Both the position numbers and the translations under genes were made by a program. The notes under the pieces are model-generated. The model was not told the origin of the DNA and ran no database searches. It was given only the letters and a program-made list of their open reading frames with translations. This document shows, piece by piece, positions 2,616 through 15,134 of a DNA stretch of 24,000 nt. Where the stretch lies: assembly GCF_018917865.1 (NCBI RefSeq), contig NZ_JAHLPM010000017.1:33896-57895 (forward strand). The letters are read 5' to 3'. The DNA is from Tissierella simiarum (GTDB lineage: Bacteria > Bacillota > Clostridia > Tissierellales > Tissierellaceae). Each line of letters opens with the position of its first letter. Position 1 is the stretch's first letter.

Positions 2616-2927
2616 CTATTTCGAATACTTTTTATGTGTTAAAATCATTTCTTTAGTAATTTCTTTTAATGTTTCTGTTGCCATTAATTGATCTTCTGCA
2701 TGAATTAAAAGTAATGATATATTTACTAGTTCTCCAGAAGCTTCTTGATGAATTAATGAACTATGAAATTCATGGGCTTTTAGTAAACTTGTCTCTGCAT
2801 CTTTAACATAGTTTTCTGCATCATCAAATTTTTCTTCTCTAGATGCTTTTAAAGCTTTAAATAGAAATGCTCTTGCATCTCCAGCATTAGTAATTAATTG
2901 GAATAATATTAGTTCTAAATCTTGCAT
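2616..2927 (-). CDS. PTS lactose/cellobiose-family EIIA component
   Basis: ORF track. 103 aa and all-helical, with LITNAGDARA, AHEFH and LLLIHAEDQLM matching the EIIA-Lac/Cel pattern (..HAqDhlM). AAAGGAGA Shine-Dalgarno. Confidence 0.9.
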   Translation of the reverse strand: MQDLELILFQLITNAGDARAFLFKALKASREEKFDDAENYVKDAETSLLKAHEFHSSLIHQEASGELVNISLLLIHAEDQLMATETLKEITKEMILTHKKYSK

Positions 2928-3002: not shown

Positions 3003-3962
3003 TTAATCAAAAGTTATAGGAGATTTGATTCTCTCAATATATTTATCTAGCCATTCTTTACTTGCAACTTCATAAGTTGTTTTTCCATCTGTATTCTTAC
3101 ATACATAAACTGTAGGTTCTTGATTTTCTGTAACTAGAGAAAAAGAAAAACCATCAATATTTGTTGCTACACCAAATTCACCTTTATTATTTAAGCATAC
3201 TACTGATAAATCTCCTGATTTTCCTCTTCTTTTGGCTAAAACATTATTTAAATCTAAAACCGCTTTATCTGCAGCATCTTGAGGATGATATCCCTCTCTC
3301 ATTAATCTAACTATCTCATAAGAAATACAGCCCTTCATTAAATCTTCTCCAAGTCCTGTTGCTGTCGCTCCTCCTATTTCACTATCTACATAGAATCCTG
3401 AACCACATACTGGCGAATCACCAGCTCTACCTCTTTTTTTCATAAATAAGCCACTAGTTGATGTCCCTGCAACCATAGTCTTATTTCTATCTAACGCTAT
3501 CATACCAACTGTATCATGACCGTCATAAGGACTCAAGCCTTTTTCTATTGTTTCTTTAATTCTTTTTTCATAATGCTGTTTTGCTCTATCAGTTAACATG
3601 TTTTTTCTCTCAAAGCCATTTTTCTGAGCATATTCTTCTGCCCCGATTCCTACTAAAAAGCAATTAAACCTTTCTTCACTTAATTTTTTAGCTATACTTA
3701 TTGGATTTCCAAAATCTCTTATTCCAGCTACTGCCCCTATAGATAGTGTATCTCCATCCATGTATCCTGCATCTAATTCAACTATACCATTTTCATTTGG
3801 CAATCCTCCATATCCAACTGATTTATAGTAGGGATAGTCCTCAACCATCTTAATTGCTTTTTCTATTGCATTACCTGCCGACTCTCTATTTTCCAATAAT
3901 TTTGATGCTTCAGTTATTCCCTCAATTGCCATCCTCCATGTTGCTATCATTGCCCATTCCAT
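3003..3962 (-). CDS. Ntn-hydrolase of the glycosylasparaginase / isoaspartyl peptidase family (start re-set to ATG 3962, 319 aa)
   Basis: Autoprocessing motif GHDTVGMIALD, with the H-D-T codons at 3518-3510. GGAGGAG Shine-Dalgarno lies 6 nt before the ATG at 3962. The 23 extra N-terminal residues in the ORF track overlap the sigma-54 promoter, so they are probably not translated. Confidence 0.85.
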   Translation of the reverse strand: MEWAMIATWRMAIEGITEASKLLENRESAGNAIEKAIKMVEDYPYYKSVGYGGLPNENGIVELDAGYMDGDTLSIGAVAGIRDFGNPISIAKKLSEERFNCFLVGIGAEEYAQKNGFERKNMLTDRAKQHYEKRIKETIEKGLSPYDGHDTVGMIALDRNKTMVAGTSTSGLFMKKRGRAGDSPVCGSGFYVDSEIGGATATGLGEDLMKGCISYEIVRLMREGYHPQDAADKAVLDLNNVLAKRRGKSGDLSVVCLNNKGEFGVATNIDGFSFSLVTENQEPTVYVCKNTDGKTTYEVASKEWLDKYIERIKSPITFD

Positions 3963-4002: not shown

Positions 4003-4019
4003 ATGCAACAACTATGCCA
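4003..4019 (-). promoter_or_regulatory. sigma-54 (-24/-12) promoter TGGCAT-AGTTG-TTGCAT for the Ntn-hydrolase/IIA unit
   Basis: Minus sense reads TGGCATAGTTGTTGCAT, which fits the TGGCAC-N5-TTGCW consensus with correct spacing. The -12 element is about 40 nt upstream of the ATG at 3962. A sigma-54 activator gene is divergent and adjacent. Confidence 0.75.
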
Positions 4020-4233: not shown

Positions 4234-5838
4234 ATGAAAAGAATAGATTTAGTTCACAATTCTATGAAAACGCTAGATAAAGGTGATGGAGTAACAACTA
4301 TTGAACTTAGTAGGTTTTTAGGTTTACAGAGATCTAATATAAGTAGAGACTTAAATATACTTGTTGAAAAAGGTTTTTTATATAAAAACAATTCTAGACC
4401 TGTAAAATACTTTTTAAATAATACTAATAACATAGATTTTACTGCTAAATCATCTATGGATAATTTATCCTATCTTTATCCTTCTTTAATTCCATCTATC
4501 AAACTCGCAAAAACTGCTATTCTTTATCCACCTAATGGAATGAATTGCCTGATTATTGGTGATACCGGTGTAGGTAAATCTATGTTAGCAAAGTTGATGC
4601 ATGAATATGCGAATTCACTAGATATCAGTAAGAATATGCCCTTTTTACATTTCAATTGTTCTGACTTTTCCAATAACCCTCAGTTATTAAGTGCCCATTT
4701 ATTTGGAGTTAAAAAAGGTACTTTTACTGGAGCAAATGAAGATAGACCTGGACTAATCCAGCAGGCAGATGGTGGTATTTTATTTCTAGATGAGATACAC
4801 AATCTTCCTAGTGAAGGACAGGAAATGCTTTTTGTCTTTATGGATACTGGATACTTTAAAAGATTTGGAGAAGTTACAACTAAAATTAAATCTTCTGCTC
4901 GAATAATATGTGCAACAAATAGGGATATAAGTTCTTCTCTTCTAGATACATTTATAAGGAGAATTCCAATAAAAATTTATCTTCCAAGGTTAGAGGAAAG
5001 ATTGTTAGAGGAAAGACTTACTCTTGTAGAATATTTTATAAAAAACGAAAGTATAAAGTTAGGTAAACCTGTTTCAGTTTCCTATAATGCAATGCTTTGT
5101 TTATTATCCTATCCTTGTCCATATAATGTAGGACAACTTAAAAATGATATTACTCTGGCTATTGCTAATGCATATTCAGAGTATTTTATCAATAATAAAA
5201 TACATATTAAAATCAACAGTCCTGATTTGCCAAAGGAATTAAGAAAAATGCTTAATACTCCATTGTTAGAAGAAAGGGCATTATTAGATTCTCTAGATAG
5301 TGTTGATTCCTACTTTACTTATGATGAAAACTCACAGATAACTAGTCATTCATTTTTAAAACAAAAACAGCTTATTCTTAACAGTTTTAAAAAGCTAATG
5401 ATGGATATTTCTAGAGTTACAATTAATAAAGAAACTGATAGCAGCTCTATAATTAATTTGTTTGGAGATTATTTGAGTATCATCAAAAATAATATTTCAA
5501 GCTATCAATATAGTCTAAATAGCTCTGCATATGAAGAAGTTTTATCTAACATATCTAGTCTGGATAATAAACTTAAGACATTTCTTAATGATGATATATT
5601 GAAAACTTTTTTTCATATTCATCTTGATATGATATATGATAGGATCAATTTAATAAATTTTGATTTTTTTCCTACTTTGAACAAGGTAAAATGTATTTTT
5701 CCAGAATACTATACTATTTCTTTAGGTCTAAAGTCCATTATAGAAAAAACCCATAATATAAACTTACTGAATACAGAAATATTGTTTCTGATACTTTTTA
5801 CAATATATTTACATAAGAACCAGATATCAATGGCATGA
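4234..5838 (+). CDS. sigma-54-dependent transcriptional activator (HTH - AAA+ - single C-terminal PRD; short LevR-like)
   Basis: ORF track. Walker A GDTGVGKS (aa 109-116), sigma-54 contact loop GTFTGA (aa 162-167, nt 4717-4734) and Walker B ILFLDEI. N-terminal winged-helix-like segment (TTIELSRFLGLQRSNISRDLNIL). The C-terminus has PRD-like histidines in FFHIHLDMIYDR and EILFLILFTIYLH. Confidence 0.85.
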   Translation: MKRIDLVHNSMKTLDKGDGVTTIELSRFLGLQRSNISRDLNILVEKGFLYKNNSRPVKYFLNNTNNIDFTAKSSMDNLSYLYPSLIPSIKLAKTAILYPPNGMNCLIIGDTGVGKSMLAKLMHEYANSLDISKNMPFLHFNCSDFSNNPQLLSAHLFGVKKGTFTGANEDRPGLIQQADGGILFLDEIHNLPSEGQEMLFVFMDTGYFKRFGEVTTKIKSSARIICATNRDISSSLLDTFIRRIPIKIYLPRLEERLLEERLTLVEYFIKNESIKLGKPVSVSYNAMLCLLSYPCPYNVGQLKNDITLAIANAYSEYFINNKIHIKINSPDLPKELRKMLNTPLLEERALLDSLDSVDSYFTYDENSQITSHSFLKQKQLILNSFKKLMMDISRVTINKETDSSSIINLFGDYLSIIKNNISSYQYSLNSSAYEEVLSNISSLDNKLKTFLNDDILKTFFHIHLDMIYDRINLINFDFFPTLNKVKCIFPEYYTISLGLKSIIEKTHNINLLNTEILFLILFTIYLHKNQISMA

Positions 5839-5885: not shown

Positions 5886-7271
5886 CTACCTAGCTAATTC
5901 ATAAATAGCCCTCGCATAGATTTGGATACATTTTTCAAGTAAAGAAACATGTATAAACTCATTAGCTTGATGAGCTAAGTTCTCATTATCTTTAAACAAA
6001 GGTCCAAAAGCTACTGTGTTGGGCATTAGCTTTGCATAAGTACCTCCGCCTGTTGATAATAATTCTGCCTCTTCACCTACTACCTCTTCATAAGCCTTTT
6101 TTAAAGACATCACTAATCTATGATCCTTTGGAAAATATAATGGAGCATTATGATTACCTTCATGGAATATAAAATTAGTATCTTTTATCTTATGCTTTAT
6201 ATTATTTAATATATCCTCATGAGATATAGTCACTGGGTATCTTATATTAAATCTCATACGTATTTCTGAGTTGTTTTCATTAATTACTCCAAGATTTAAT
6301 GTTAATGCTCCCGACTCTTCATCATAGAAATTTATTCCAAGTTTATTGCCATCCCAATCTTTTCCTATTAATTCTGAAAAATCTTCTAAAAACATAGTAA
6401 AATCATTTTTTAATTTTAATACCTTGTTTAAGTATAATAGTATATTAGCTATAGCATTTTCACCTAACTCTGGTGTGCTTCCATGAGAAGCTATTCCCTT
6501 ACTTTTTATTATTATATAATTTTCACTATATTCTAAGTCTATTTTATATATTTCTTTTAGACTTGTATCATTAAGTGCCATAATTAGCTGATTGTTATTA
6601 TTATGTATTATCTTACATTCACAATAATCAGGAACTATATTAGATCTTTTTCCTCCCTTAATATAATCAATTTCATAATCATCAAAGACATTTTCTAAAT
6701 TTTGTACTAATTCAAAAGTAAGAATTCCTTTTTCAGAAGTTACTATAGGAAAATAAGCATCGGGAGTAAAACAGTATAGTGGAGATTCTTCCCTCTTTAA
6801 GTAATAATCTATATCCTCTGTTCCAGATTCTTCATTAGTACCAAATATTACTCTAACTTTTTTAGATAATTTTATATTTGAATCCTTTAATAGTTTTAAT
6901 GCATAAAGTGCAGCTAGTAATGGTCCTTTATCATCTAAAGCTCCTCTACCATGGACTTTGCCATCTTTTATTATAGGTTCAAAGGGATTTGTACTCCAAC
7001 CATTCCCTTCTGGCACAACATCTATATGACCTAATACACCCACGTATTCATCGCCTTGTCCAAATTCTGCATACCCTATATAGTTATTTAAGTTAACTGT
7101 CCTAAACCCATATGACTTAGCTATGTCTAATATACAGTTTAAACCTTCTGTTATTCCCGCACCAAAAGGATGATCTTTAACAGAAACATCTTTTACTGTT
7201 TTTTTCCTTAATATGCTTTTTAAATCTATTAAAAACTCATCTTCTATTTTAATGTCCTTAATAAACACCAT
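5886..7271 (-). CDS. M20-family dipeptidase, PepV-like, full length (461 aa)
   Basis: ORF track. GHIDVVP, GRGALDDKGP, GTNEESG, FTPD and AHQANE correspond to the M20 metal and catalytic positions. The lid segment with KGIASHGSTPELGENA is present. Confidence 0.85.
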   Translation of the reverse strand: MVFIKDIKIEDEFLIDLKSILRKKTVKDVSVKDHPFGAGITEGLNCILDIAKSYGFRTVNLNNYIGYAEFGQGDEYVGVLGHIDVVPEGNGWSTNPFEPIIKDGKVHGRGALDDKGPLLAALYALKLLKDSNIKLSKKVRVIFGTNEESGTEDIDYYLKREESPLYCFTPDAYFPIVTSEKGILTFELVQNLENVFDDYEIDYIKGGKRSNIVPDYCECKIIHNNNNQLIMALNDTSLKEIYKIDLEYSENYIIIKSKGIASHGSTPELGENAIANILLYLNKVLKLKNDFTMFLEDFSELIGKDWDGNKLGINFYDEESGALTLNLGVINENNSEIRMRFNIRYPVTISHEDILNNIKHKIKDTNFIFHEGNHNAPLYFPKDHRLVMSLKKAYEEVVGEEAELLSTGGGTYAKLMPNTVAFGPLFKDNENLAHQANEFIHVSLLEKCIQIYARAIYELAR

Positions 7272-7321: not shown

Positions 7322-8425
7322 TTATCTATTAGTTGTTTTCATTTCTCTCAATAATTCTGAGTTTACTCTTTTACAAAATTCTGTAATAACTTCTACCGTT
7401 TGAATATAATCTTTACAATGAATTATTAGTCTAGGTGAATGCATATAACGTGTTGGTATAGAAAGTGTCATTGTAATAATCCCATCAAATGTTTTGTGTA
7501 TGATACCAGAATCTGTTCCTCCTGCAGTCATAAGGTCATAATTTATATCTAGCTTTAGCTCTTTACAAATTTCTTCTATTTTTTCAATTAATCCTCTGTG
7601 TGCTAATGCTGTAGAATCTAATACACTAAGTATAACTCCACATCCTAGCTTTATTTCACCTTTATCTACTGGTGTATCTTTAGCTGTTGTTACATCTAAT
7701 GCAAAGGCAATATCTGGTTTAATAATCTGGGTTGAAGTTCTAGCTCCCCTCAGTCCAACTTCCTCCTGAACCGTGCCAACTACATAAATATTTGCATCAT
7801 GCTCAATATTTTGTAGTTTCTTTAATACATCTATACCTACTGCTATACCTATCCTATCATCCCATGCCTTACCTAATAAATAATTTTGATTATTCATAAT
7901 AGAAAAGTTAACATTGGGAGTAATCATATCTCCTATTTGTATTCCCAAATCTTCCGCTTCTTCTTTTGTTGCTACTCCCAAATCTATGAATAAATCAATT
8001 GGTTTAATCACTTTTTCTTTTTCGGAATTTGACATTCCATGAGGTGCACGACTTCCAACAATACCATTAATCTTTTTACCTGCTGATGTGGTTATGGTCA
8101 TTTCTTGGGAAGGCAATACATGCCCCCACCATCCTCCTACAGGCAATATTTTTATATATCCATTACTATCAATATCTCTTACAACAAATCCTACTTCATC
8201 CATATGTCCAGCAATCATAATTTTAGGTCCATTCGGTTTACCTTTTTTTAATCCTATAATTGAACCTAAATTATCATATGAAATTTCATCAATATAATTA
8301 TTTAGATACTTTTTAACAACTCTACTAACTTCTTTTTCGCAACCTGATATACCGTCAGCTTCACTTAGTTCTTTTAGCATTTGTAAATCTATATTATGGT
8401 AAGTTACTTCTTTGTTTTTACTCAT
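7322..8425 (-). CDS. M42-family aminopeptidase (FrvX/YsdC/TET-like), ligand set intact
   Basis: ORF track. GHMDEVGF (H74), KAWDDRIG (D189/190), VQEEVGLRGA (E221/E222), ALDVT (D244) and RYMHSP (H329). Confidence 0.85.
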   Translation of the reverse strand: MSKNKEVTYHNIDLQMLKELSEADGISGCEKEVSRVVKKYLNNYIDEISYDNLGSIIGLKKGKPNGPKIMIAGHMDEVGFVVRDIDSNGYIKILPVGGWWGHVLPSQEMTITTSAGKKINGIVGSRAPHGMSNSEKEKVIKPIDLFIDLGVATKEEAEDLGIQIGDMITPNVNFSIMNNQNYLLGKAWDDRIGIAVGIDVLKKLQNIEHDANIYVVGTVQEEVGLRGARTSTQIIKPDIAFALDVTTAKDTPVDKGEIKLGCGVILSVLDSTALAHRGLIEKIEEICKELKLDINYDLMTAGGTDSGIIHKTFDGIITMTLSIPTRYMHSPRLIIHCKDYIQTVEVITEFCKRVNSELLREMKTTNR

Positions 8426-8480
8426 GAATCTTCCTCCAAGACTTTAAATTCTTATATTTTTTATACTAAATATAAATATC

Positions 8481-9557
8481 TTACCTATTTTCAGCTTTAA
8501 ATTTATTAATGCTTTCTGTGTTCAATGATTTTACAACATTAATGATTGCTTCTTTTGCGGCAATGTAATCATCAACGTCTATTATTGAACTATTAGTATT
8601 AATGTTTCTAGCACAAATACAAGTGGTTAAAGTTGGACATCCCACCAATAGTTTATGAATCCATCCAGCATCACTATCACCCATAGAATAAAAATACTGA
8701 TGTTTTATATGATTTGTTTTACAAATATGGATTAAATGCTGCAACAATGTTCTATTAGGCATCATTGATTTATCATAATAATTAATTAATATTCCTTCTC
8801 CTAGTTTTCCTACCGTATCATCACCACTTTTTATATCATTTGCTTGTAAACATTCCATTACAATTCCTAAATCTGGCTTAATTAAGTTAGTAGAAGTTTG
8901 AGCACCTCTTAATCCCACCTTATTTTGTACTGTAGAACCAATATATAAATCTACATCTAACTCTATATCCTTTAGTGCTTCTAATAATTCTATACCCATG
9001 ATACAGCCATAACGATTATTCCAAGCTTTAGAAAGAATTCTTTTACCTTTAGTTAGTACTTCAAATTGTCCATCAATAACAATTGAATCACCAAACTTTA
9101 TTCCTAACTCTGCAATTTCTTCTTTACTAGTTCCTCCAATATCCACTAAAATTTCACTAGCTTTTATTAATTTATCCTCGTCTGCTTGAGGATTAGGAAC
9201 AATTATACTTCCTTTAAATTCCTTTCCCTCATGATTTATCAATCTAACCCTTTGTGCTAATACAGTTTGATTTTGAATACTACCTAATGGCAAAACTCTA
9301 ATTAATCCTGTATCTGTAATTCCATTAACTACAAATCCAACTTCATCCATATGCCCACAAATTATAACTTTTTTAGCATTTTCTTTTCCACAACGCTTTA
9401 CCGCAAAAACAGAACCTAAATTATCAAAAATTATTTCATCTGTATATTTTTTATAATGCTTTTGTAATACTCTAGAAATATATTTTTCATTTCCTGAAAC
9501 TCCAATTATTTGAGTAATCTCTTCCATTAATTCTAATGTATTATCATTTAATTTCAT
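8481..9557 (-). CDS. M42-family paralog with substituted metal and catalytic residues (probable pseudo-peptidase)
   Basis: ORF track. It aligns by eye to the neighbouring M42 protein, but AWNNRYG replaces AWDDRIG, VQNKVGLRGA replaces VQEEVGLRGA, VMECL replaces ALDVT, and ARNINTN replaces TRYMHSP. Only the GHMDEVGF histidine is kept. Confidence 0.8.
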   Translation of the reverse strand: MKLNDNTLELMEEITQIIGVSGNEKYISRVLQKHYKKYTDEIIFDNLGSVFAVKRCGKENAKKVIICGHMDEVGFVVNGITDTGLIRVLPLGSIQNQTVLAQRVRLINHEGKEFKGSIIVPNPQADEDKLIKASEILVDIGGTSKEEIAELGIKFGDSIVIDGQFEVLTKGKRILSKAWNNRYGCIMGIELLEALKDIELDVDLYIGSTVQNKVGLRGAQTSTNLIKPDLGIVMECLQANDIKSGDDTVGKLGEGILINYYDKSMMPNRTLLQHLIHICKTNHIKHQYFYSMGDSDAGWIHKLLVGCPTLTTCICARNINTNSSIIDVDDYIAAKEAIINVVKSLNTESINKFKAENR

Positions 9558-9592: not shown

Positions 9593-10717
9593 CTATTTTG
9601 CTAATTTATATATTGCCTGAGCAAATATTTTTGTATTTAATACTATATCGCTAATATCCATATATTCATTAGGATTGTGAGCAATTCCCTTTTGTCCTGG
9701 AAATGATGGACCAAATGGTACAATGTTGGGCATAATCTTTGCGTAAGTTCCACCAGTAGTTGTAACTGGAGTTCCATCTAAATTAGTTACTTCTTCATAA
9801 GCTTCTTGTAAAGATTTAACTAGAAAACAATCTTTTTTAAATTTAACTGGATTATAATTTTGTAATAGCTCTATGCTTAAGTTTCTACTCATTTTTGATT
9901 CTATCTGACTAATTATTTCATCTATCGTACATATTGCTGGATAGCTTAAATCAAACAGAAAATTTAAATGATTATCCTTAATATCCAAATTGTAATTTCT
10001 CATTTCCATAATCCCAAACTCTTTATCACTATAATTAATCCCTAACCTATCACCATTTGATTTACTTGATAGAAAATAACTATTGATAAAATTGAAAAAT
10101 TCTTGTGTAGATTCTTCATAATTTTCTTTATTTATATGGACTCTTATTTTAATTTTTGCTCTCCCTCGTTCACCATAAACTACTGGATACTTGCAATCAG
10201 GAGTAAATCCCATAATTGGAGGCTTTTCTCTATCTAAATAATGAGGTATGTCCTGGAATCCACTTTCTTCATCAGTACCAAATATAATACGTACTGGTTT
10301 TTTTAATTCTAATTTAGATTCTTTTATGGCGTATAATGCATATAATGCACTTATTATTGGTCCCTTGTTATCAAGTACTCCCCGACTATAAATCCTATCA
10401 TTTTCAACATGTCCACTAAATGGTGGATTAATCCACCCTTCTTCTGAAGGAACTACATCTAAATGTCCTACAACTCCTATATAATCATCACCATCACCTA
10501 ATTGTGCATATCCTACATATCCATCAATATTTTTCGTTTTGAAATTCAGTTTTTCAGATATTTCTAATGCTTTTAATAACGCATTATGGACATTTACTCC
10601 AAATGGAGCATCTACTATAGGTACATCTTTTACACTTGGTATCTTTACTATTTCAATAATATCCTTTATTAGCTGTTCTTTGAACTCATCTATTTTTTCA
10701 TTTAAAATTTGTTCCAT
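9593..10717 (-). CDS. M20-family dipeptidase, PepV-related but about 90 aa shorter (lid segment missing)
   Basis: ORF track. GHLDVVP, SRGVLDNKGP, GTDEESG, FTPD and AHNPNE are retained. The region corresponding to the ..GGKRSN....SHGSTPELGENA.. part of the 461-aa paralog is absent. No obvious Shine-Dalgarno before the ATG. Confidence 0.8.
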   Translation of the reverse strand: MEQILNEKIDEFKEQLIKDIIEIVKIPSVKDVPIVDAPFGVNVHNALLKALEISEKLNFKTKNIDGYVGYAQLGDGDDYIGVVGHLDVVPSEEGWINPPFSGHVENDRIYSRGVLDNKGPIISALYALYAIKESKLELKKPVRIIFGTDEESGFQDIPHYLDREKPPIMGFTPDCKYPVVYGERGRAKIKIRVHINKENYEESTQEFFNFINSYFLSSKSNGDRLGINYSDKEFGIMEMRNYNLDIKDNHLNFLFDLSYPAICTIDEIISQIESKMSRNLSIELLQNYNPVKFKKDCFLVKSLQEAYEEVTNLDGTPVTTTGGTYAKIMPNIVPFGPSFPGQKGIAHNPNEYMDISDIVLNTKIFAQAIYKLAK

Positions 10718-10794
10718 TGTTTGTCAGCAACTTGTAGTAAATATTTACTACAAAGCTTATTCACCCCTTAATATATATTTTTTGTTATCTAAAA

Positions 10795-10822
10795 AGGTAG
10801 CCTAATTAATTTTAGACTACCT
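10795..10822 (-). terminator. intra-locus hairpin plus U-tract directly after the GrdB-like gene (terminator or attenuator)
   Basis: Minus-sense RNA reads AGGUAGUC-(12 nt)-GGCUACCU followed by UUUUUAG: 8 bp including one G-U. It starts 6 nt after the stop at 10828. Confidence 0.5.
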
Positions 10823-10827
10823 ATTTT

Positions 10828-11349
10828 TTAATAGCATATTTCTTTTAAATACTCACTTATATCTTCCCCATCAACTTTCTTTCTAGCTAAAGAGCAAATA
10901 TTTCTAAGGGATTCACTTAATCCAGTTCCACCTTTTTTGGGCATAACTACAATATTCACTAAATCTTTATAATCTAAAATAGTTTGTTCATTTTCTTTAG
11001 ACATTGCAGCTATAGCTGGAATATTAGTTTTTTCATTAATTTCGTAAGCTAATACTGCACACATTTCTGCATATCCTGCATAGTTAAAAGCTGGTCCACA
11101 TATAACTATATCTGGATTAATTTTTTTCACCATAGCTGTCATTTTTAACTTTACTTCATCTCTATTATCTTTGAAAAAACCATCTCCGCAATATAAGCAT
11201 GCTACAACCTTCCCATTTACTTCCTTTAAAGCTGGTTCCAACATACTTGCAGATCCTATAGCCATAGATTTACCCCCTAATGGTAAATTAGGGTTTTCTT
11301 TGCCTCCTTGACCAGCCTGTACTTGATCGAATATCATTAAAACCTTCAT
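10828..11349 (-). CDS. stand-alone GrdB N-terminal-domain-like protein (173 aa), function unknown
   Basis: ORF track. The strings FDQVQAGQGGKE, CGDGFF, NPDIVICGPAFNYAGY and IPAIAAM parallel my memory of the N-terminal region of glycine/betaine/sarcosine/proline reductase selenoprotein B (..INQFF.GIGGEEKA.., ..CGD.Y.., ..NPDL.IAGPAFNAGRYG.., ..IP.V..M). AGGAGGTAAGG Shine-Dalgarno; the gene is tightly coupled to IIC. Confidence 0.55.
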   Translation of the reverse strand: MKVLMIFDQVQAGQGGKENPNLPLGGKSMAIGSASMLEPALKEVNGKVVACLYCGDGFFKDNRDEVKLKMTAMVKKINPDIVICGPAFNYAGYAEMCAVLAYEINEKTNIPAIAAMSKENEQTILDYKDLVNIVVMPKKGGTGLSESLRNICSLARKKVDGEDISEYLKEICY

Positions 11350-11360
11350 TTCCTTACCTC

Positions 11361-12710
11361 CTAAAAATCATCAAAAGATAAATCTTCAAAAGAAATATCT
11401 TCTTCCTCTTGCAGATTATTTTTTGCATCTTCTTCATCTTTTAGGTATTGTTTATCTAGCATCTTTATAAACGGATAATAAATTACACATCCCAGTACCA
11501 ATAATCCTATTTGCCACAATCCTGCGAACAAACTTCCCGTTGACAAGTATCCAGAAAATCCTATTGGAGTTGTCCACGGTAATGATACTCCTGTAGTATA
11601 AGGAATAATTCCTGCCTTAGTAGCAAATGTGGAAAGTATCAAATTTATTAGTGGAACACCAATAAATGGAACAATTAACACTGGATTTAATACAATTGGT
11701 AATCCAAAGATAATTGGCTCATTAATTCCAAAAATTCCTGGAACGATTGATAACTTACCTAATTGATTAATTCTTTTTGATTTACAGAAAAGTAACATAA
11801 CTATAACTAGCGAAAGAGTACTTCCTCCTCCTCCAAATCCTGTGAAGAAATTTGAAAAGGGATCTGTAAATATATTTGGTAACGGTAATCCAGCTTGGAA
11901 TGCTTCCAAGTTTTCAATAGTTAGTATTTTAGTAATTGGTGCAAATACTGTATTTGCAACTGCTGGACCGTTAATTCCAAAGAACCAAAATAGCGTACAT
12001 ACTATACTATATACAATTTGAGCTACCAATGTGTTTCCTACACCTTGTAACGGTGCCTGTAATACTGTATATATAAAGTTATGTGCTGTTTCAAAGGGTG
12101 TAAATTCAAATCCTATACGAATAAAGAAAAATAGTCCAATAACTATAGCACTTGGAATCAATGCTGCAAAAGAATCACATACTGCTGGCGGAACACCTTC
12201 TGGCATCTTAATCGTCCAACCTTTTCTATATGCCCAATTAAATACACTTACTGATGTTAAGGATATAATAAGAGCTAAAAATATACCATTAGAGCCTACA
12301 TACTCAAAGCCTAGTGCATTCATAGTGGCTGGTCCATCAACACCTTCAAACGGAATTCTTGTTGGCATCAAGATAATGAATGCGACTAAAGCCACAACTG
12401 CTCCTTGAATCTTATCACCTTTTATTTCTCTAGAATATGCATAGCCTGTCCCCACACAGGTCAACAAACCAATTATGTTAAAGGTTGCTCTTGAAACATT
12501 TATAAACCATAACTCCCAATCTACTCCAAGATATTTTGTCCAAAACTCAGACCAACCTGGAACTGGAAAATTTGCTATTAATAAAAAGATAGAACCTACA
12601 ATTAACAATGGTGTTGATATCAGAAAACCATCACGAATTGCAACTAAAACTTTATTTTTGCCTAGTCTATCAGCAATAGGCATTAGCACCTTTTCTAATG
12701 ATGCAAGCAT
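11361..12710 (-). CDS. PTS lactose/cellobiose-family EIIC permease (449 aa) with an acidic C-terminal tail
   Basis: ORF track. Polytopic membrane protein with the typical EIIC type-3 layout (N-terminal LEKVLMPIA..LG.N..L.AIRDG). AGGAGGAG Shine-Dalgarno. The tail is DEEDAKNNLQEEEDISFEDLSFDDF. Confidence 0.9.
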   Translation of the reverse strand: MLASLEKVLMPIADRLGKNKVLVAIRDGFLISTPLLIVGSIFLLIANFPVPGWSEFWTKYLGVDWELWFINVSRATFNIIGLLTCVGTGYAYSREIKGDKIQGAVVALVAFIILMPTRIPFEGVDGPATMNALGFEYVGSNGIFLALIISLTSVSVFNWAYRKGWTIKMPEGVPPAVCDSFAALIPSAIVIGLFFFIRIGFEFTPFETAHNFIYTVLQAPLQGVGNTLVAQIVYSIVCTLFWFFGINGPAVANTVFAPITKILTIENLEAFQAGLPLPNIFTDPFSNFFTGFGGGGSTLSLVIVMLLFCKSKRINQLGKLSIVPGIFGINEPIIFGLPIVLNPVLIVPFIGVPLINLILSTFATKAGIIPYTTGVSLPWTTPIGFSGYLSTGSLFAGLWQIGLLVLGCVIYYPFIKMLDKQYLKDEEDAKNNLQEEEDISFEDLSFDDF

Positions 12711-12721
12711 TTTATCTCCTC

Positions 12722-13045
12722 CTATTTTTTATTTTTTTTAATAAGAATAATTGCAGTTTTTAAAACCTTTTCTGCATTCATCATTCCATAGTCTTGTGAG
12801 TCAATTACTGCTATTGGAGTATTAATATCCTTGAATCTCTCTACTGTTTCATCATATAAGTACTTAACTTGTGGTCCTAATAGTATACAATCAGGATTAA
12901 GAGTTTCAACAATTTCTTCAAGTTTACCATGTGGAAAAGCTTTTACCTCAATTGGAAGCTCATGAGTATCTGCCACATCCTGCATCTTATTTGCTAATAA
13001 ACTTGTAGACATACCATGGCTGCAGAATAAATAAATCTTTTTCAT
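12722..13045 (-). CDS. PTS lactose/cellobiose-family EIIB component
   Basis: ORF track. 107 aa with the N-terminal IYLFCSHGMSTSLL active-site cysteine loop typical of EIIB-Cel. Confidence 0.9.
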   Translation of the reverse strand: MKKIYLFCSHGMSTSLLANKMQDVADTHELPIEVKAFPHGKLEEIVETLNPDCILLGPQVKYLYDETVERFKDINTPIAVIDSQDYGMMNAEKVLKTAIILIKKNKK

Positions 13046-13323
13046 CGTTTACACCTACTTTCTCTAATATTATTATTTTATTTGTTTAATAAAAACTTTG
13101 TTAACCTCTAGCTTATATTATCCTCTCATCTTAGCTGTTTATCAATGATAGATGCCAATCAATCTTTGTGGCAAACGTTCTCCTTAAAATTTTTATCCTA
13201 TTATTTTATGTACTCAGTAATTTTTTCTTATCTTTAATCATCACATCCTCCTATTTATAGAAAACATTAATTATAACACATAATTATATTAATCAATTTC
13301 TTAACTACCTTTATCTTTTATAT

Positions 13324-13340
13324 AGCAATTCTTATGCCAA
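13324..13340 (-). promoter_or_regulatory. sigma-54 (-24/-12) promoter TTGGCAT-AAGAA-TTGCT for the IIB-IIC-... operon
   Basis: Minus sense reads TTGGCATAAGAATTGCT, which fits TGGCAC-N5-TTGCW with correct spacing. It lies about 280 nt upstream of the IIB start, implying a long leader. Confidence 0.75.
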
Positions 13341-13772
13341 CTTTAAATTAGTGCTATAACCATATTGTTTTAGGATTCTCTTTATGATTTCTTGTATAGT
13401 TTTATCTTCAATTCTAAAAGTGTATCCTATTTCAACACACATCTTAAGAGTTTATTGGATTTGATTTTGATAGTGTATTGTTTTTTTTATATTTCATACA
13501 CTATTATCCTCAACTCAACACAATCAATATTAAAACAATATTCTTCCTTTTATCAGCATATATAATTAGAGCAGTTATTTGAAAATAGGGACTCAACAGT
13601 TTCTTATTATTTGACGTAAAATAATCTATATTTATATAAAAATAAATACTCTTTTCTGGCAAAAATTAAACAAAACCAAAAAAGAGTATATTATAAAAAA
13701 ATTTTAATAGAAATAATTTAAAATTGGGACTTACAGATTGATAGTTCCCTAAGAAATAATGATTATTAATTA

Positions 13773-14210
13773 TTACATCCATTTTTTTAGACTATTTAAT
13801 ATTCTATTCTTAAATTTATTAGTAGTCGATTTGGTTAATGATTCTTTAAGAATCTCAGGTTGAATGCTTATCAACTCCCATGAATTTCCCTCACATGCAT
13901 TTACAATCTCATGTACTATTTTTATATTTTCCCTATTTTCAGCTCCCCAGTCATGTAGCAATGTTCCACCCTTACCTCCGCTGATAACTACTTCTATTTC
14001 AGCTTCATTGTAATCAGTAAATTTTAGAATAATTACTGACATAAGCGTTGACCAAGTTCTTGCATAAAAGCTCTCTCTCATCAAGACTGCTATGTTTTCT
14101 GAACTATACACATGTGGTTTATTGTAATAATATTCATTTCTATAATTATATAAAATATCAATTATGTCTCTTATATTTTCTCCCTTCACAACTAAATTAG
14201 ACACTTTCAT
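13773..14210 (-). CDS. hypothetical protein (145 aa)
   Basis: ORF track, with a GGAGGA Shine-Dalgarno. It vaguely recalls small DUF-type proteins with an SGGKGG...WG motif, but I cannot name a family confidently. Confidence 0.6.
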   Translation of the reverse strand: MKVSNLVVKGENIRDIIDILYNYRNEYYYNKPHVYSSENIAVLMRESFYARTWSTLMSVIILKFTDYNEAEIEVVISGGKGGTLLHDWGAENRENIKIVHEIVNACEGNSWELISIQPEILKESLTKSTTNKFKNRILNSLKKWM

Positions 14211-14300: not shown

Positions 14301-15134
14301 CTATAGTGTACTTAATTTTATGTTTTCTAACTTTTCCTGTATTATATAAAGATATTTACTACTTTTATCTTCTTTAAGAATTCTAAAATATAGACCTCTC
14401 AAAAAATTTTTTATATTAATATAAATATTATCATTTTTATCAGAATATTTCCCTAATTTTAAATTTTGTCTGAACCCCACTATCCAGCTTATTATCTCAG
14501 ATTCACTAAGCATTTCTCTATTCAATATGCTCATTACTGCCGTTATCATACGTTCATCTTCATCATGAATATATATATAATAATCTACTTCTACCTTTTC
14601 ATAAATTATATTAAGAATTTCTCTTAAATCCTCTTTATCTATTTCTGTACATTGTGCAATCTCATCTAAAGCATCAGATCCATGAGCAACACTATGTGCC
14701 CATCCTTTCTTATCTACATACCCTCGTAAATCTTTCTCTTTTCTCATATAGCAAATTAATTTATCCTTTACTATTCCTAAGTCTTCTTTAGTTAAAAAAT
14801 TGTTTTTTCTATGTGCATACAAAATTGCTGCTACTATTAGCATTGAAAAGCTTCGAGTAAATACTGAATCATCAATATTGCCTATATTGTAAAATAAATG
14901 ACCGTCATCTAAACTTATTCCTAAAATTTTGTATAATTCATCAACACTAAATACATCATTTACTATCCAATTTGACATTACAGAATATATCAAATCATCC
15001 CTTAGTTCACTATCTGTATCTCCTATATATCTTAACATTATCAATGCCAATTCTAATGCATTTTCTCCTTTACCCAACTTATATTCTTCTTTTTTTATTG
15101 TTCTCAATTTTTGTATTAAATAGCTTTTATCCAT
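14301..15134 (-). CDS. DUF2785-like protein (277 aa), function unknown
   Basis: ORF track, with an AAGGAGG Shine-Dalgarno. Helical-repeat-like sequence with GWAHSVAHGSDAL, which I associate with DUF2785. Assignment is from memory only. Confidence 0.55.
   Translation of the reverse strand: MDKSYLIQKLRTIKKEEYKLGKGENALELALIMLRYIGDTDSELRDDLIYSVMSNWIVNDVFSVDELYKILGISLDDGHLFYNIGNIDDSVFTRSFSMLIVAAILYAHRKNNFLTKEDLGIVKDKLICYMRKEKDLRGYVDKKGWAHSVAHGSDALDEIAQCTEIDKEDLREILNIIYEKVEVDYYIYIHDEDERMITAVMSILNREMLSESEIISWIVGFRQNLKLGKYSDKNDNIYINIKNFLRGLYFRILKEDKSSKYLYIIQEKLENIKLSTL

Follow-up and report, generated by a model that had tools for sequence, protein, structure and literature searches.

The DNA analysed here, called the window in the following, is a stretch of 24,000 nucleotides (nt) from Tissierella simiarum (contig NZ_JAHLPM010000017.1, positions 33,896 to 57,895 of the forward strand). 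It contains a gene for a stand-alone protein of 173 amino acids (aa) that resembles the N-terminal part of selenoprotein B (GrdB) and is located directly after the gene for the EIIC component of a lactose/cellobiose (Lac/Cel) family phosphotransferase system (PTS). Our analysis points, with a probability of roughly 40%, to a role of this GrdB-like protein as a non-redox, ligand-binding accessory partner of its EIIC. This reading is based on the adjacency of the two genes (76 of 82 copies), a hairpin specific to the junction behind the GrdB-like gene, an acidic tail restricted to the linked EIICs and the conserved, putatively ligand-binding loops in the AlphaFold2 (AF2) model of the protein, as well as on the precedent of the proteins CelG, CelH and CelI (CelGHI) of Enterococcus faecalis (PMC11976118). 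Both the family to which the gene belongs, which has a name, and the type of its locus are already known, and in this respect the gene is less novel than it appeared from the sequence alone.

The open reading frame (ORF) is a real gene and not a chance one, given that 245 close homologues of ~173 aa exist and that relatives are encoded in 329 reference genomes. The listed close homologues are almost all 169–185 aa long and are found in Clostridia, Erysipelotrichia and Lactobacillales (Vagococcus, Enterococcus, Latilactobacillus, Companilactobacillus, Pediococcus and others). The Pfam profile PF07355 (GRDB) matched the protein with an E-value of 1.2e-27 on positions 3–164 of 347, which is the N-terminal part only, and the NCBIfam equivalog model NF041545 (GrdB_like_no_Se, "GrdB-related putative oxidoreductase") matched it over its full length with 258.2 bits against a cut-off of 175, residues 2–172 being aligned to model positions 1–171 of 171. 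In keeping with the no-selenocysteine definition of NF041545, the frame has no in-frame stop, hence no in-frame TGA, and is closed by an ordinary stop codon after 173 aa. An earlier note, made from the letters of the sequence alone, had drawn a parallel to the N-terminal third of GrdB and had described an ORF that ends with TAA ahead of the selenocysteine part and lacks an in-frame TGA. Both profiles and the alignment bear out the parallel, our reading of the ORF agrees, and the four motifs concerned (FDQVQAGQGGKE, CGDGFF, NPDIVICGPAFNYAGY and IPAIAAM) were all located. The proposed profile check, namely whether the protein is PF07355-like, was positive, and the searches did not lead to an unrelated, already characterised family but to a named, uncharacterised one. 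The stand-alone family is already curated as NF041545; our literature search found no experimental work on it, the text matches being annotation tables only, and among the homologues listed by the protein searches there was no named E. faecalis protein.

A full-length selenoprotein B of ~430 aa is not encoded here, as the scores on the respective models remained below their cut-offs (TIGR01917, 76 versus 602 bits; GrdF, 92 versus 800 bits; GrdH, 57 versus 775 bits). The loose subfamily model TIGR01918 was just passed (76.2 versus 65.45 bits), which explains why homologues bear the names "selenoprotein B", "glycine reductase" or "proline reductase" in some sources. On proteins of 173 aa, such labels are no evidence of Stickland metabolism. 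In an exhaustive profile search, which returned 622 clusters at 50% identity, the stand-alone form came out on top with full-length members scoring from ~240 down to 125 bits, and GrdB-type proteins reached at most ~95 bits; many of the latter matches were truncated at ~350 aa, the expected position of the selenocysteine (Sec) codon. Several apparent fusions were rejected as architectures because they join mid-domain, namely P0172 (EIIC C-terminus with the GrdB-like protein from residue 57), P0143 (GrdB-like N-terminal half with MupG C-terminal half), P0142 and P0188; they look like deletion products or assembly chimeras.

Sequence comparison gives good support to a descent of the GrdB-like protein from the selenoprotein B subunit of glycine, sarcosine and betaine reductases, namely from its N-terminal lobe, whose conserved loop residues are retained. 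The first ~165 residues are homologous to those of GrdB, GrdF and GrdH (PF07355, TIGR01917, TIGR01918) with 25–30% identity. Common motifs are NQ/DQ...G.GG, CGD, PD..I.GPAFN..RYG/GY and IPA...M..EN, and the positions common to the alignment are Q9, G15, G32, C54, G55, D80, G85, P86, Y93 and E119. In contrast to selenoprotein B, the GrdB-like protein lacks residues ~170 to 430 including the Sec redox motif UxxCxxC (PMC13188914) and has K17, a PKKGGxGL loop and a C-terminal CY or CF as specific features. Its locus is also devoid of the selenoprotein B partners GrdE, GrdA, GrdC and GrdD, and its context is never grd or prd. No grd or prd gene is present in the window; neither a GrdE-type proprotein nor GrdA, GrdC/D or a thioredoxin system was detected among the ORFs of the window or the recurrent neighbour clusters of 80 related loci, and tblastn found the C-terminal half of GrdB neither in the window nor in any fetched locus. 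The database name "oxidoreductase" is probably misleading for this family.

The EIIC gene ends with a TAG codon at 11363..11361, and 11 nt separate it from the ATG of the GrdB-like gene at 11349, which is preceded by its own Shine-Dalgarno sequence. The earlier note had stated this spacing and the AGGAGG correctly, both being read directly from the sequence. Its further claim of translational coupling to the PTS permease stands as far as a tight junction with an own Shine-Dalgarno sequence is concerned, while coupling proper goes beyond that. A Shine-Dalgarno-like core was present upstream of the gene in 73 of 78 family members.

For the comparative analysis, 80 loci were fetched from reference genomes, their ORFs were called and clustered, recurrent clusters were named by Pfam, and neighbours were counted in 78 loci. 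Directly after EIIC and on the same strand, we found 76 of the 82 GrdB-like copies of the 80 genomes, with a median spacing of 13 nt. Two of the six exceptions are ORF-calling artefacts and four are divergent paralogues; apparent absences of the GrdB-like gene in L044, L048 and L057 are artefacts of the ORF filter in genomes of higher GC content. EIIC was a neighbour in 77 of the 78 loci, M20 peptidases in 67, EIIB in 66, Asparaginase_2 in 65, an RDD membrane protein just upstream of EIIB or EIIA in 54, EIIA in 48, CutC in 47, a PRD regulator in 44, YitT in 29, M42 peptidases in 25, a MupG-like 6-phospho-glycosidase in 18 and aspartase in 7. EIIC and the GrdB-like gene are the only two components that recur in essentially all clustered neighbourhoods, and one locus is reduced to regulator-RDD-EIIC-GrdB-like without nearby hydrolase genes. 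The Lactobacillaceae loci examined have the order GntR-M20-Asparaginase_2-GrdB-like-EIIC, in which EIIC is adjacent on the opposite side; such a reversed but adjacent order was observed in Latilactobacillus curvatus, Pediococcus, Xylocopilactobacillus and locus L094. None of the copies in the 80 loci is close to grd or prd genes. The suggested count of EIIC versus grd/prd neighbourhoods thus came out entirely on the EIIC side, confirming the tie to a PTS permease, and the enrichment in PTS neighbourhoods, whose lack had been named as an argument against it, is essentially total. Among 711 plasmids with an EIIC homologue, the sole locus pairing an EIIC more than 50% identical to that of the window with a stand-alone GrdB-like gene belongs to L. 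curvatus. The other three GrdB-like matches on plasmids were weaker (27–31% identity), and one of them is annotated grdF.

The divergent paralogues (L007, 13106..13624; L008, 12689..13207; L012, 8430..8915; L014, 12697..13182) are 34–41% identical and lack several family-invariant residues, LNHVQAGLGNE and TPNKGEDGL replacing the family motifs. They occur in C. baratii, C. nitritogenes and relatives beside a sigma-54 activator and directly before the asparaginase gene, and the genomes that bear them also have a canonical copy after EIIC. Another unusual case is L003 (MGYG-HGUT-02421), titled Varibaculum timonense, an actinobacterium. Its GrdB-like protein is 82% identical to that of the window and its genes look clostridial, so that label or bin is probably wrong.

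The hairpin behind the GrdB-like gene of the window has a folding energy of -15.4 kcal/mol (z = -4.64), and none of 200 shuffled sequences folds as well. With a threshold of -10 kcal/mol or better for a stable hairpin, 47 of the 68 GrdB-like junctions in the comparative survey had such a structure immediately behind the stop codon, compared with no more than 7% of any other type of intra-operon junction. Its frequency was 26/42 when the asparaginase gene follows, 12/13 with M20 and 9/13 with M42. The position of the hairpin is conserved across genera, and the stem sequences differ between lineages. A strong U-run accompanies the hairpin at only 23 of the 68 junctions, and some of these structures may therefore be mRNA 3' stabilisers and not terminators. 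The hairpin of the window is predicted to act as a partial terminator or as an mRNA 3' stabiliser that closes an EIIB-EIIC-GrdB-like sub-unit. Such a sub-unit had already been suggested on the basis of hairpin and U-tract, and its junction-specific occurrence strengthens this view. The region between the terminator-like stem and the peptidase genes also contains a perfect 22-nt palindrome, TTGTAGTAAATATTTACTACAA (10732..10753), which may serve as an operator or form a further RNA hairpin. It precedes the start of the short M20 gene by 14 nt, and no Shine-Dalgarno sequence is obvious for this gene.

The EIIC protein of the window carries the acidic C-terminal tail ...EEEDISFEDLSFDDF. Its end, shared by the partner EIICs, is the tandem acidic-hydrophobic motif ...DDISFDDLSFDDL-COOH with the consensus (E/D)(D/E)DIS(L/F)DDLSFDDL-COOH; Lactobacillaceae have the shorter form DLDIDF(D/S)E(V/I), for example DLDIDFSEV. 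The tail is present in 80 of 81 distinct EIIC sequences, the exception being the unlinked EIIC paralogue of L032, and was missing from six unlinked Lac/Cel EIICs (Pantoea CelB, Klebsiella ChbC, Borrelia CelB, a Priestia EIIC, an EIIC of an E. faecium plasmid and the second EIIC of L081). The tail has the appearance of a motif on which a cytoplasmic partner could dock. To our knowledge, neither this tail motif nor the junction-specific hairpin has been described previously. Two side observations concern the tail. L003 carries a second tail-bearing EIIC without a GrdB-like gene of its own, and in L. sakei (L083 and L084, ~7880..7980) the EIIC gene has a frameshift just before the tail, identical in two independent assemblies, with the tail …AEDISFDDLTEQT readable in the other frame.

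The AF2 model of the GrdB-like protein, built with an alignment of 78 sequences, has a mean predicted local distance difference test score (pLDDT) of 97.4 and a predicted template modelling score (pTM) of 0.92. It exhibits a flavodoxin-like alpha/beta fold with strands at residues 2–7, 47–53, 81–84, 112–116 and 133–135 and helices between them, and it is well supported that the protein is a cytoplasmic, single flavodoxin-like domain. A Foldseek search against the PDB retrieved CheY receivers as best matches, with template modelling (TM) scores of 0.45–0.51 and E-values of 4e-3 or higher, corresponding to a generic flavodoxin/CheY-like similarity; there was no close PDB neighbour, and the PDB sequence search with the family profile yielded unrelated proteins (best E 0.013). 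The AlphaFold and Foldseek check recommended earlier has thus provided a confident flavodoxin-like model with only weak CheY-like neighbours (TM at most 0.51). The identity of a CheY-like receiver was rejected, as the position equivalent to the phospho-acceptor is C/A/V84-G85-P86 and not Asp, and the likeness is confined to the fold.

Nearly all invariant polar and glycine residues of the family follow beta strands. Invariant or nearly so are D8, Q9, Q11, G13, G15 and K17; C54 and G55; C84, G85, P86, N89 and Y90; M116, S117 and E119; and P137, K138, K139, G140, G141, G143 and L144. In addition, K69 and K76 are located on one helix. Strand ends are the usual ligand-site positions of flavodoxin-like folds, and the topology of the model suggests a putative binding site there. 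The window protein has no histidine at all. C54, C84, C152 and C172 are conserved among clostridial members, and not one cysteine is retained throughout the wider family, C54 being replaced by Ser in Enterococcus songbeiensis, C84 by Ala or Val in several members and C172 by Ile in L. sakei. The lack of histidine and of an invariant cysteine argues against roles in thiol/selenol redox chemistry, as a zinc hydrolase or as a PTS phosphocarrier. No Pfam family that binds flavin or nucleotides matched the members above noise. Weak matches to ETF (27 members, best E 0.0012) and PIG-L (20 members, best E 0.025) were attributed to the common strand motif kPDvVi.G and rejected, the zinc ligands of PIG-L being absent in a protein without histidine.

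The gene content gives good support to the view that the window locus (Table 1) is a clostridial, probably sigma-54-controlled, peptidase-rich version of the ega-type (enterococcal glycosylasparaginase) locus and that its GrdB-like gene is the clostridial orthologue of the GrdB-related gene of such loci. It is well supported that loci of this type import N-acetylglucosaminyl-L-asparagine (GlcNAc-L-Asn) derived from glycoproteins via a Lac/Cel-family PTS and process it with M20 and M42 peptidases and glycosylasparaginase; short glycopeptides are probably imported as well. By orthology, GlcNAc-L-Asn would also be the substrate of the window locus. The set of Lac/Cel EIIC, EIIB, Asparaginase_2 and M20 dipeptidase is complete in the window. 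The GntR repressor EgaR, which is said to bind GlcNAc-Asn directly in E. faecalis, is not encoded there; a sigma-54/PRD activator divergent from the asparaginase operon is found instead, and GntR occurs in the versions of Lactobacillales. The two sigma-54 type sites share the form TGGCAT-N5-TTGC(T/A) and flank the activator gene. The window version is thus probably sigma-54 dependent, unlike the GntR-repressed enterococcal one. Its asparaginase is 60% identical to an L. curvatus protein annotated by PGAP as N(4)-(beta-N-acetylglucosaminyl)-L-asparaginase, and its EIIC, scoring 412 bits on the lacE subfamily model TIGR00410 (cut-off 236), is 69% identical to the EIIC of an ega-like locus of E. 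songbeiensis. The latter has the order GntR-M20-Asparaginase_2-EIIC-GRDB-M42-M42, of which the loci of L. sakei and L. curvatus are close variants.

Table 1. Features of the GrdB-like locus in the window (positions refer to the 24,000-nt stretch)
Feature	Position	Strand	Remarks
Sigma-54 type -24/-12 promoter-like site, TGGCATAAGAATTGCT	13324..13339	(-)	~280 nt upstream of EIIB; pattern search, 1 mismatch to TGGCAC-N5-TTGCW
PTS EIIB, Lac/Cel family	12722..13045	(-)	107 aa; active-site FCSHGMSTS; Pfam PF02302, E 8e-18
PTS EIIC, Lac/Cel family	11361..12710	(-)	449 aa; orthologue of the EIIC in ega-type loci; Pfam PF02378, E 2e-58
Acidic-hydrophobic C-terminal tail of EIIC, EEEDISFEDLSFDDF-COOH	11364..11408	(-)	outside the EIIC family model
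Shine-Dalgarno sequence AGGAGG of the GrdB-like gene	11357..11362	(-)	overlaps the EIIC stop codon; 7 nt before the ATG
GrdB-like stand-alone protein, family NF041545	10828..11349	(-)	173 aa; ATG start; TAA stop
Stem-loop with U-run	10790..10822	(-)	11-bp stem 10822..10795, then TTTTT; 5 nt after the stop codon
Short PepV/Sapep-like M20 peptidase	9593..10717	(-)	374 aa; Pfam PF01546, E 7e-31
M42 aminopeptidase, paralogue 1	8481..9557	(-)	Pfam PF05343, E 1e-74
M42 aminopeptidase, paralogue 2	7322..8425	(-)	Pfam PF05343, E 1e-98
Full-length PepV-type M20 dipeptidase	5886..7271	(-)	461 aa; NCBIfam NF005591 (PepV), 522 bits versus cut-off 435
Sigma-54-dependent activator with PRD domain, LevR/CelR-like	4234..5838	(+)	Pfam Sigma54_activat, E 2.5e-40; PRD, E 5e-5
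Second sigma-54 type promoter-like site, TGGCATAGTTGTTGCA	4004..4019	(-)	~42 nt upstream of the likely asparaginase start
Glycosylasparaginase-like Ntn hydrolase (Asparaginase_2)	3003..3962	(-)	Pfam PF01112, E 1.6e-60
PTS EIIA, Lac/Cel family	2616..2927	(-)	Pfam PF02255, E 2.5e-30

Some further features of the locus deserve mention. The true start of the asparaginase is likely the ATG at 3962 (MEWAMIATWRMA). The short M20 peptidase measures 374 aa instead of ~466, and its match to the PepV model is split into two stretches, which suggests the loss of a part of the lid or dimerisation domain; this short form is conserved in GrdB-like loci (cluster median 374 aa, 69 loci). Two M42 aminopeptidase paralogues stand in tandem within the PTS locus (7322..9557, minus strand). 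We know of no explanation for the role of the M42 genes in PTS operons of E. coli (frvX, sgcX, ypdE), for which glycopeptide trimming might deserve thought. The RDD gene expected upstream of EIIB is absent, only short ORFs being found in the 730-nt gap (13046..13772), and tblastn detected no remnant of it upstream of EIIB in the window. Further upstream, an ORF of 145 aa without Pfam match (13773..14210, minus strand) and a gene for a DUF2785 protein (14301..15134, minus strand) do not recur in related loci. Genes for CutC (a TIM-barrel protein), a YitT/DUF2179 membrane protein and a MupG-like protein (clusters c7, c10 and c11; L015–L080) recur downstream of Asparaginase_2-M20 in other loci and are absent from the window; they suggest substrates such as chitobiosyl-Asn and further pathway steps. 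Elsewhere, the window holds ordinary chromosomal genes (secF, recJ, relA, dtd and others).

How could a lobe of a reductase serve a sugar transporter? We propose that the GrdB-like protein would not be a reductase and would be made in step with EIIB and EIIC. Its conserved Gly/Lys-rich loops at the C-terminal strand ends would bind the anionic part of the incoming phosphorylated glyco-amino acid, either its amino-acid end or the 6-phosphate, and the protein would be held at the transporter, possibly through the acidic EIIC tail. It may then improve uptake or hand the product on to the hydrolases, being helpful, not essential, for GlcNAc-Asn itself. A bolder version, which we regard as doubtful, sees in it an unrecognised kind of PTS component. 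The protein would be a cytoplasmic fourth subunit docked on the EIIC end ...DDISFDDLSFDDL-COOH, and its Stickland-reductase lobe would hold phosphorylated glyco-amino acids or glycopeptides by their amino-acid end, thereby coupling uptake to processing by peptidases and glycosylasparaginase; in an enzymatic variant, it would be the missing enzyme disposing of the 6-phospho-glycosylamine.

Several observations weigh against an accessory partner of EIIC. In E. faecalis OG1RF, the ega locus reportedly still supports the use of GlcNAc-Asn. The GrdB-like gene of this strain is a split pseudogene according to PMC11549559, and taken together the two reports make a strictly required transporter subunit unlikely. 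The divergent paralogues precede the asparaginase gene and do not adjoin EIIC. The GrdB-like gene of L. sakei is intact although the tail of its EIIC is out of frame. Moreover, EIIB is more basic than the GrdB-like protein (median isoelectric point 8.7 versus 6.5), and the acidic tail could therefore serve the docking of EIIB instead; charge does not single out the GrdB-like protein. Finally, the dense set of invariant polar residues would suit an enzyme no less than it suits a binding module.

This last point leads to the main alternative, a soluble pathway enzyme, which we consider unlikely. It would convert 6-phospho-GlcNAc-1-amine, left by glycosylasparaginase, to GlcNAc-6-phosphate and ammonia by general acid catalysis through D8 or E119. 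The breakdown of the glycosylamine is the sole pathway step without an assigned enzyme and is slow at neutral pH; for 1-amino-GlcNAc, a purely non-enzymatic decay that takes place mainly under acid conditions has been described (PMC6960285). Invariant polar loop residues are available at the strand ends (D8, Q9, Q11, K17, N89, Y90, S117, E119, K138, K139), the paralogues immediately precede the asparaginase gene, the release of ammonia by the reductase has been ascribed to its GrdB subunit (PMC13188914), and dispensability in E. faecalis would suit an enzyme that merely accelerates a spontaneous step. However, the canonical copies always adjoin EIIC and not the asparaginase gene, the hairpin separates them from the hydrolase genes, and some loci have EIIC and the GrdB-like gene without an asparaginase gene within 7–8 kb. 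PDB profile search, Foldseek and Pfam gave no similarity to a known hydrolase or lyase. The chemical parallel to GrdB is also loose, as the betaine reductase GrdH keeps the N-terminal domain and imine formation is impossible for betaine, a quaternary amine.

It is improbable that the protein is a substrate sensor or regulatory partner which binds the glyco-amino acid or its phosphate and modulates the PRD/sigma-54 or GntR regulators or the phosphorylation of EIIB. Small single-domain proteins with conserved ligand loops are commonly sensors, CheY-like receivers are the best structural neighbours, and the loci always contain a dedicated regulator of the PRD, sigma-54 or GntR type. But the type of regulator varies by lineage (sigma-54/PRD, Mga/PRD, GntR) while the GrdB-like protein is constant, in E. 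faecalis it is reportedly EgaR itself that binds GlcNAc-Asn, the structural matches are weak and the phospho-acceptor Asp is lacking, as outlined above.

A true oxidoreductase that reduces a bond of the substrate via cysteines or a cofactor is quite improbable. Homology to a reductase subunit, a flavodoxin-like fold able to carry flavin and the four cysteines conserved in clostridial members would be compatible with such a function. Against it stand the absence of the Sec/UxxCxxC half from the protein and of the GrdB C-terminal half from any locus, the lack of an invariant cysteine in the wider family and of GrdE, GrdA, GrdC or thioredoxin genes in the window, the missing Pfam match to flavin- or nucleotide-binding families above noise, and a known pathway that needs no redox step. 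Hardly credible is a PTS phospho-relay component replacing EIIB or EIIA, a candidate role raised in the earlier note and now largely refuted: several loci, including all of the Lactobacillaceae type, have no nearby EIIB or EIIA gene, Lac/Cel EIIB has a flavodoxin-like fold too, and there is a local profile match over the PD-x-V-x-x-GP strand, but the window protein has no histidine, the family has neither an invariant cysteine nor a counterpart of the EIIB active-site loop FCSxGMSTS, hhalign against an EIIB alignment gave 30% probability over 24 columns away from this loop, and missing components can be supplied in trans, as E. faecalis borrows CelA1 (PMC11976118).

Returning to an accessory partner of EIIC, the regularities of hairpin and EIIC tail make the function of the GrdB-like protein experimentally testable. 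With ega-type loci, bacteria of the gut and of wounds can live on the GlcNAc-Asn core of N-glycoproteins of the host, and such loci reportedly matter for infection by E. faecalis. The GrdB-like component is present in essentially every locus examined of a pathway that is relevant to virulence and gut colonisation. Once learned, its role would fill the last gap in the GlcNAc-Asn pathway and show how a lobe of a selenoenzyme can be reused without redox chemistry.

The closest known system is the ega locus of E. faecalis, with which the window locus was compared by description. According to PMC11549559, OG1RF_10933-34 encode the GntR regulator and a dipeptidase, and OG1RF_10938/10939 is a GrdB-like "putative oxidoreductase", a split pseudogene directly after EIIC (citing Combret et al., Res Microbiol 175:104169), which is referenced to the GrdB paper of Wagner et al. 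1999. The substrate imported by the E. faecalis PTS is GlcNAc-L-Asn, and its EIIA function is borrowed from the general component CelA1 (PMC11976118). The GrdB-like gene has the same position in both systems, after a Lac/Cel EIIC gene and together with glycosylasparaginase and M20 dipeptidase, and the intact gene at this position in the matching locus of E. songbeiensis belongs to the GrdB-like family. In contrast to OG1RF, the gene of the window is intact; the window also has a sigma-54/PRD activator with two -24/-12-like sites in place of the GntR repressor EgaR, and adds its own EIIA, two M42 aminopeptidases and a second M20 peptidase. The earlier note had seen no obvious role for a reductase-derived domain in PTS sugar catabolism. 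With a locus of the ega type, devoted to glyco-amino acids, a domain derived from an amino-acid reductase is less out of place.

The same class of substrates is used by the alf-2 pathway of Lacticaseibacillus casei for fucosyl-alpha-1,6-GlcNAc-Asn, which likewise pairs a glycosylasparaginase (AsnA2) with a PepV-type M20 peptidase and leaves the glycosylamine product without an assigned enzyme (PMC6960285). In place of a PTS, however, it relies on a sugar kinase and on AlfH, a permease of the major facilitator superfamily, and no GrdB-like gene has been reported in its operon (PMC6960285). For the transporter itself, the best comparison is CelGHI of E. faecalis, which are always encoded after the EIIC CelC2 and needed for its transport function (PMC11976118). 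The GrdB-like protein has no sequence relationship to these small proteins (64–136 aa), of which CelH is described as a membrane protein, and unlike them it appears to be dispensable, at least for GlcNAc-Asn in OG1RF. In both cases, however, a gene follows systematically one Lac/Cel EIIC gene in an operon under sigma-54/LevR-like control, and together with CelGHI the GrdB-like family would, once its role is established, add to the growing evidence for dedicated accessory proteins of Lac/Cel-family PTS permeases.

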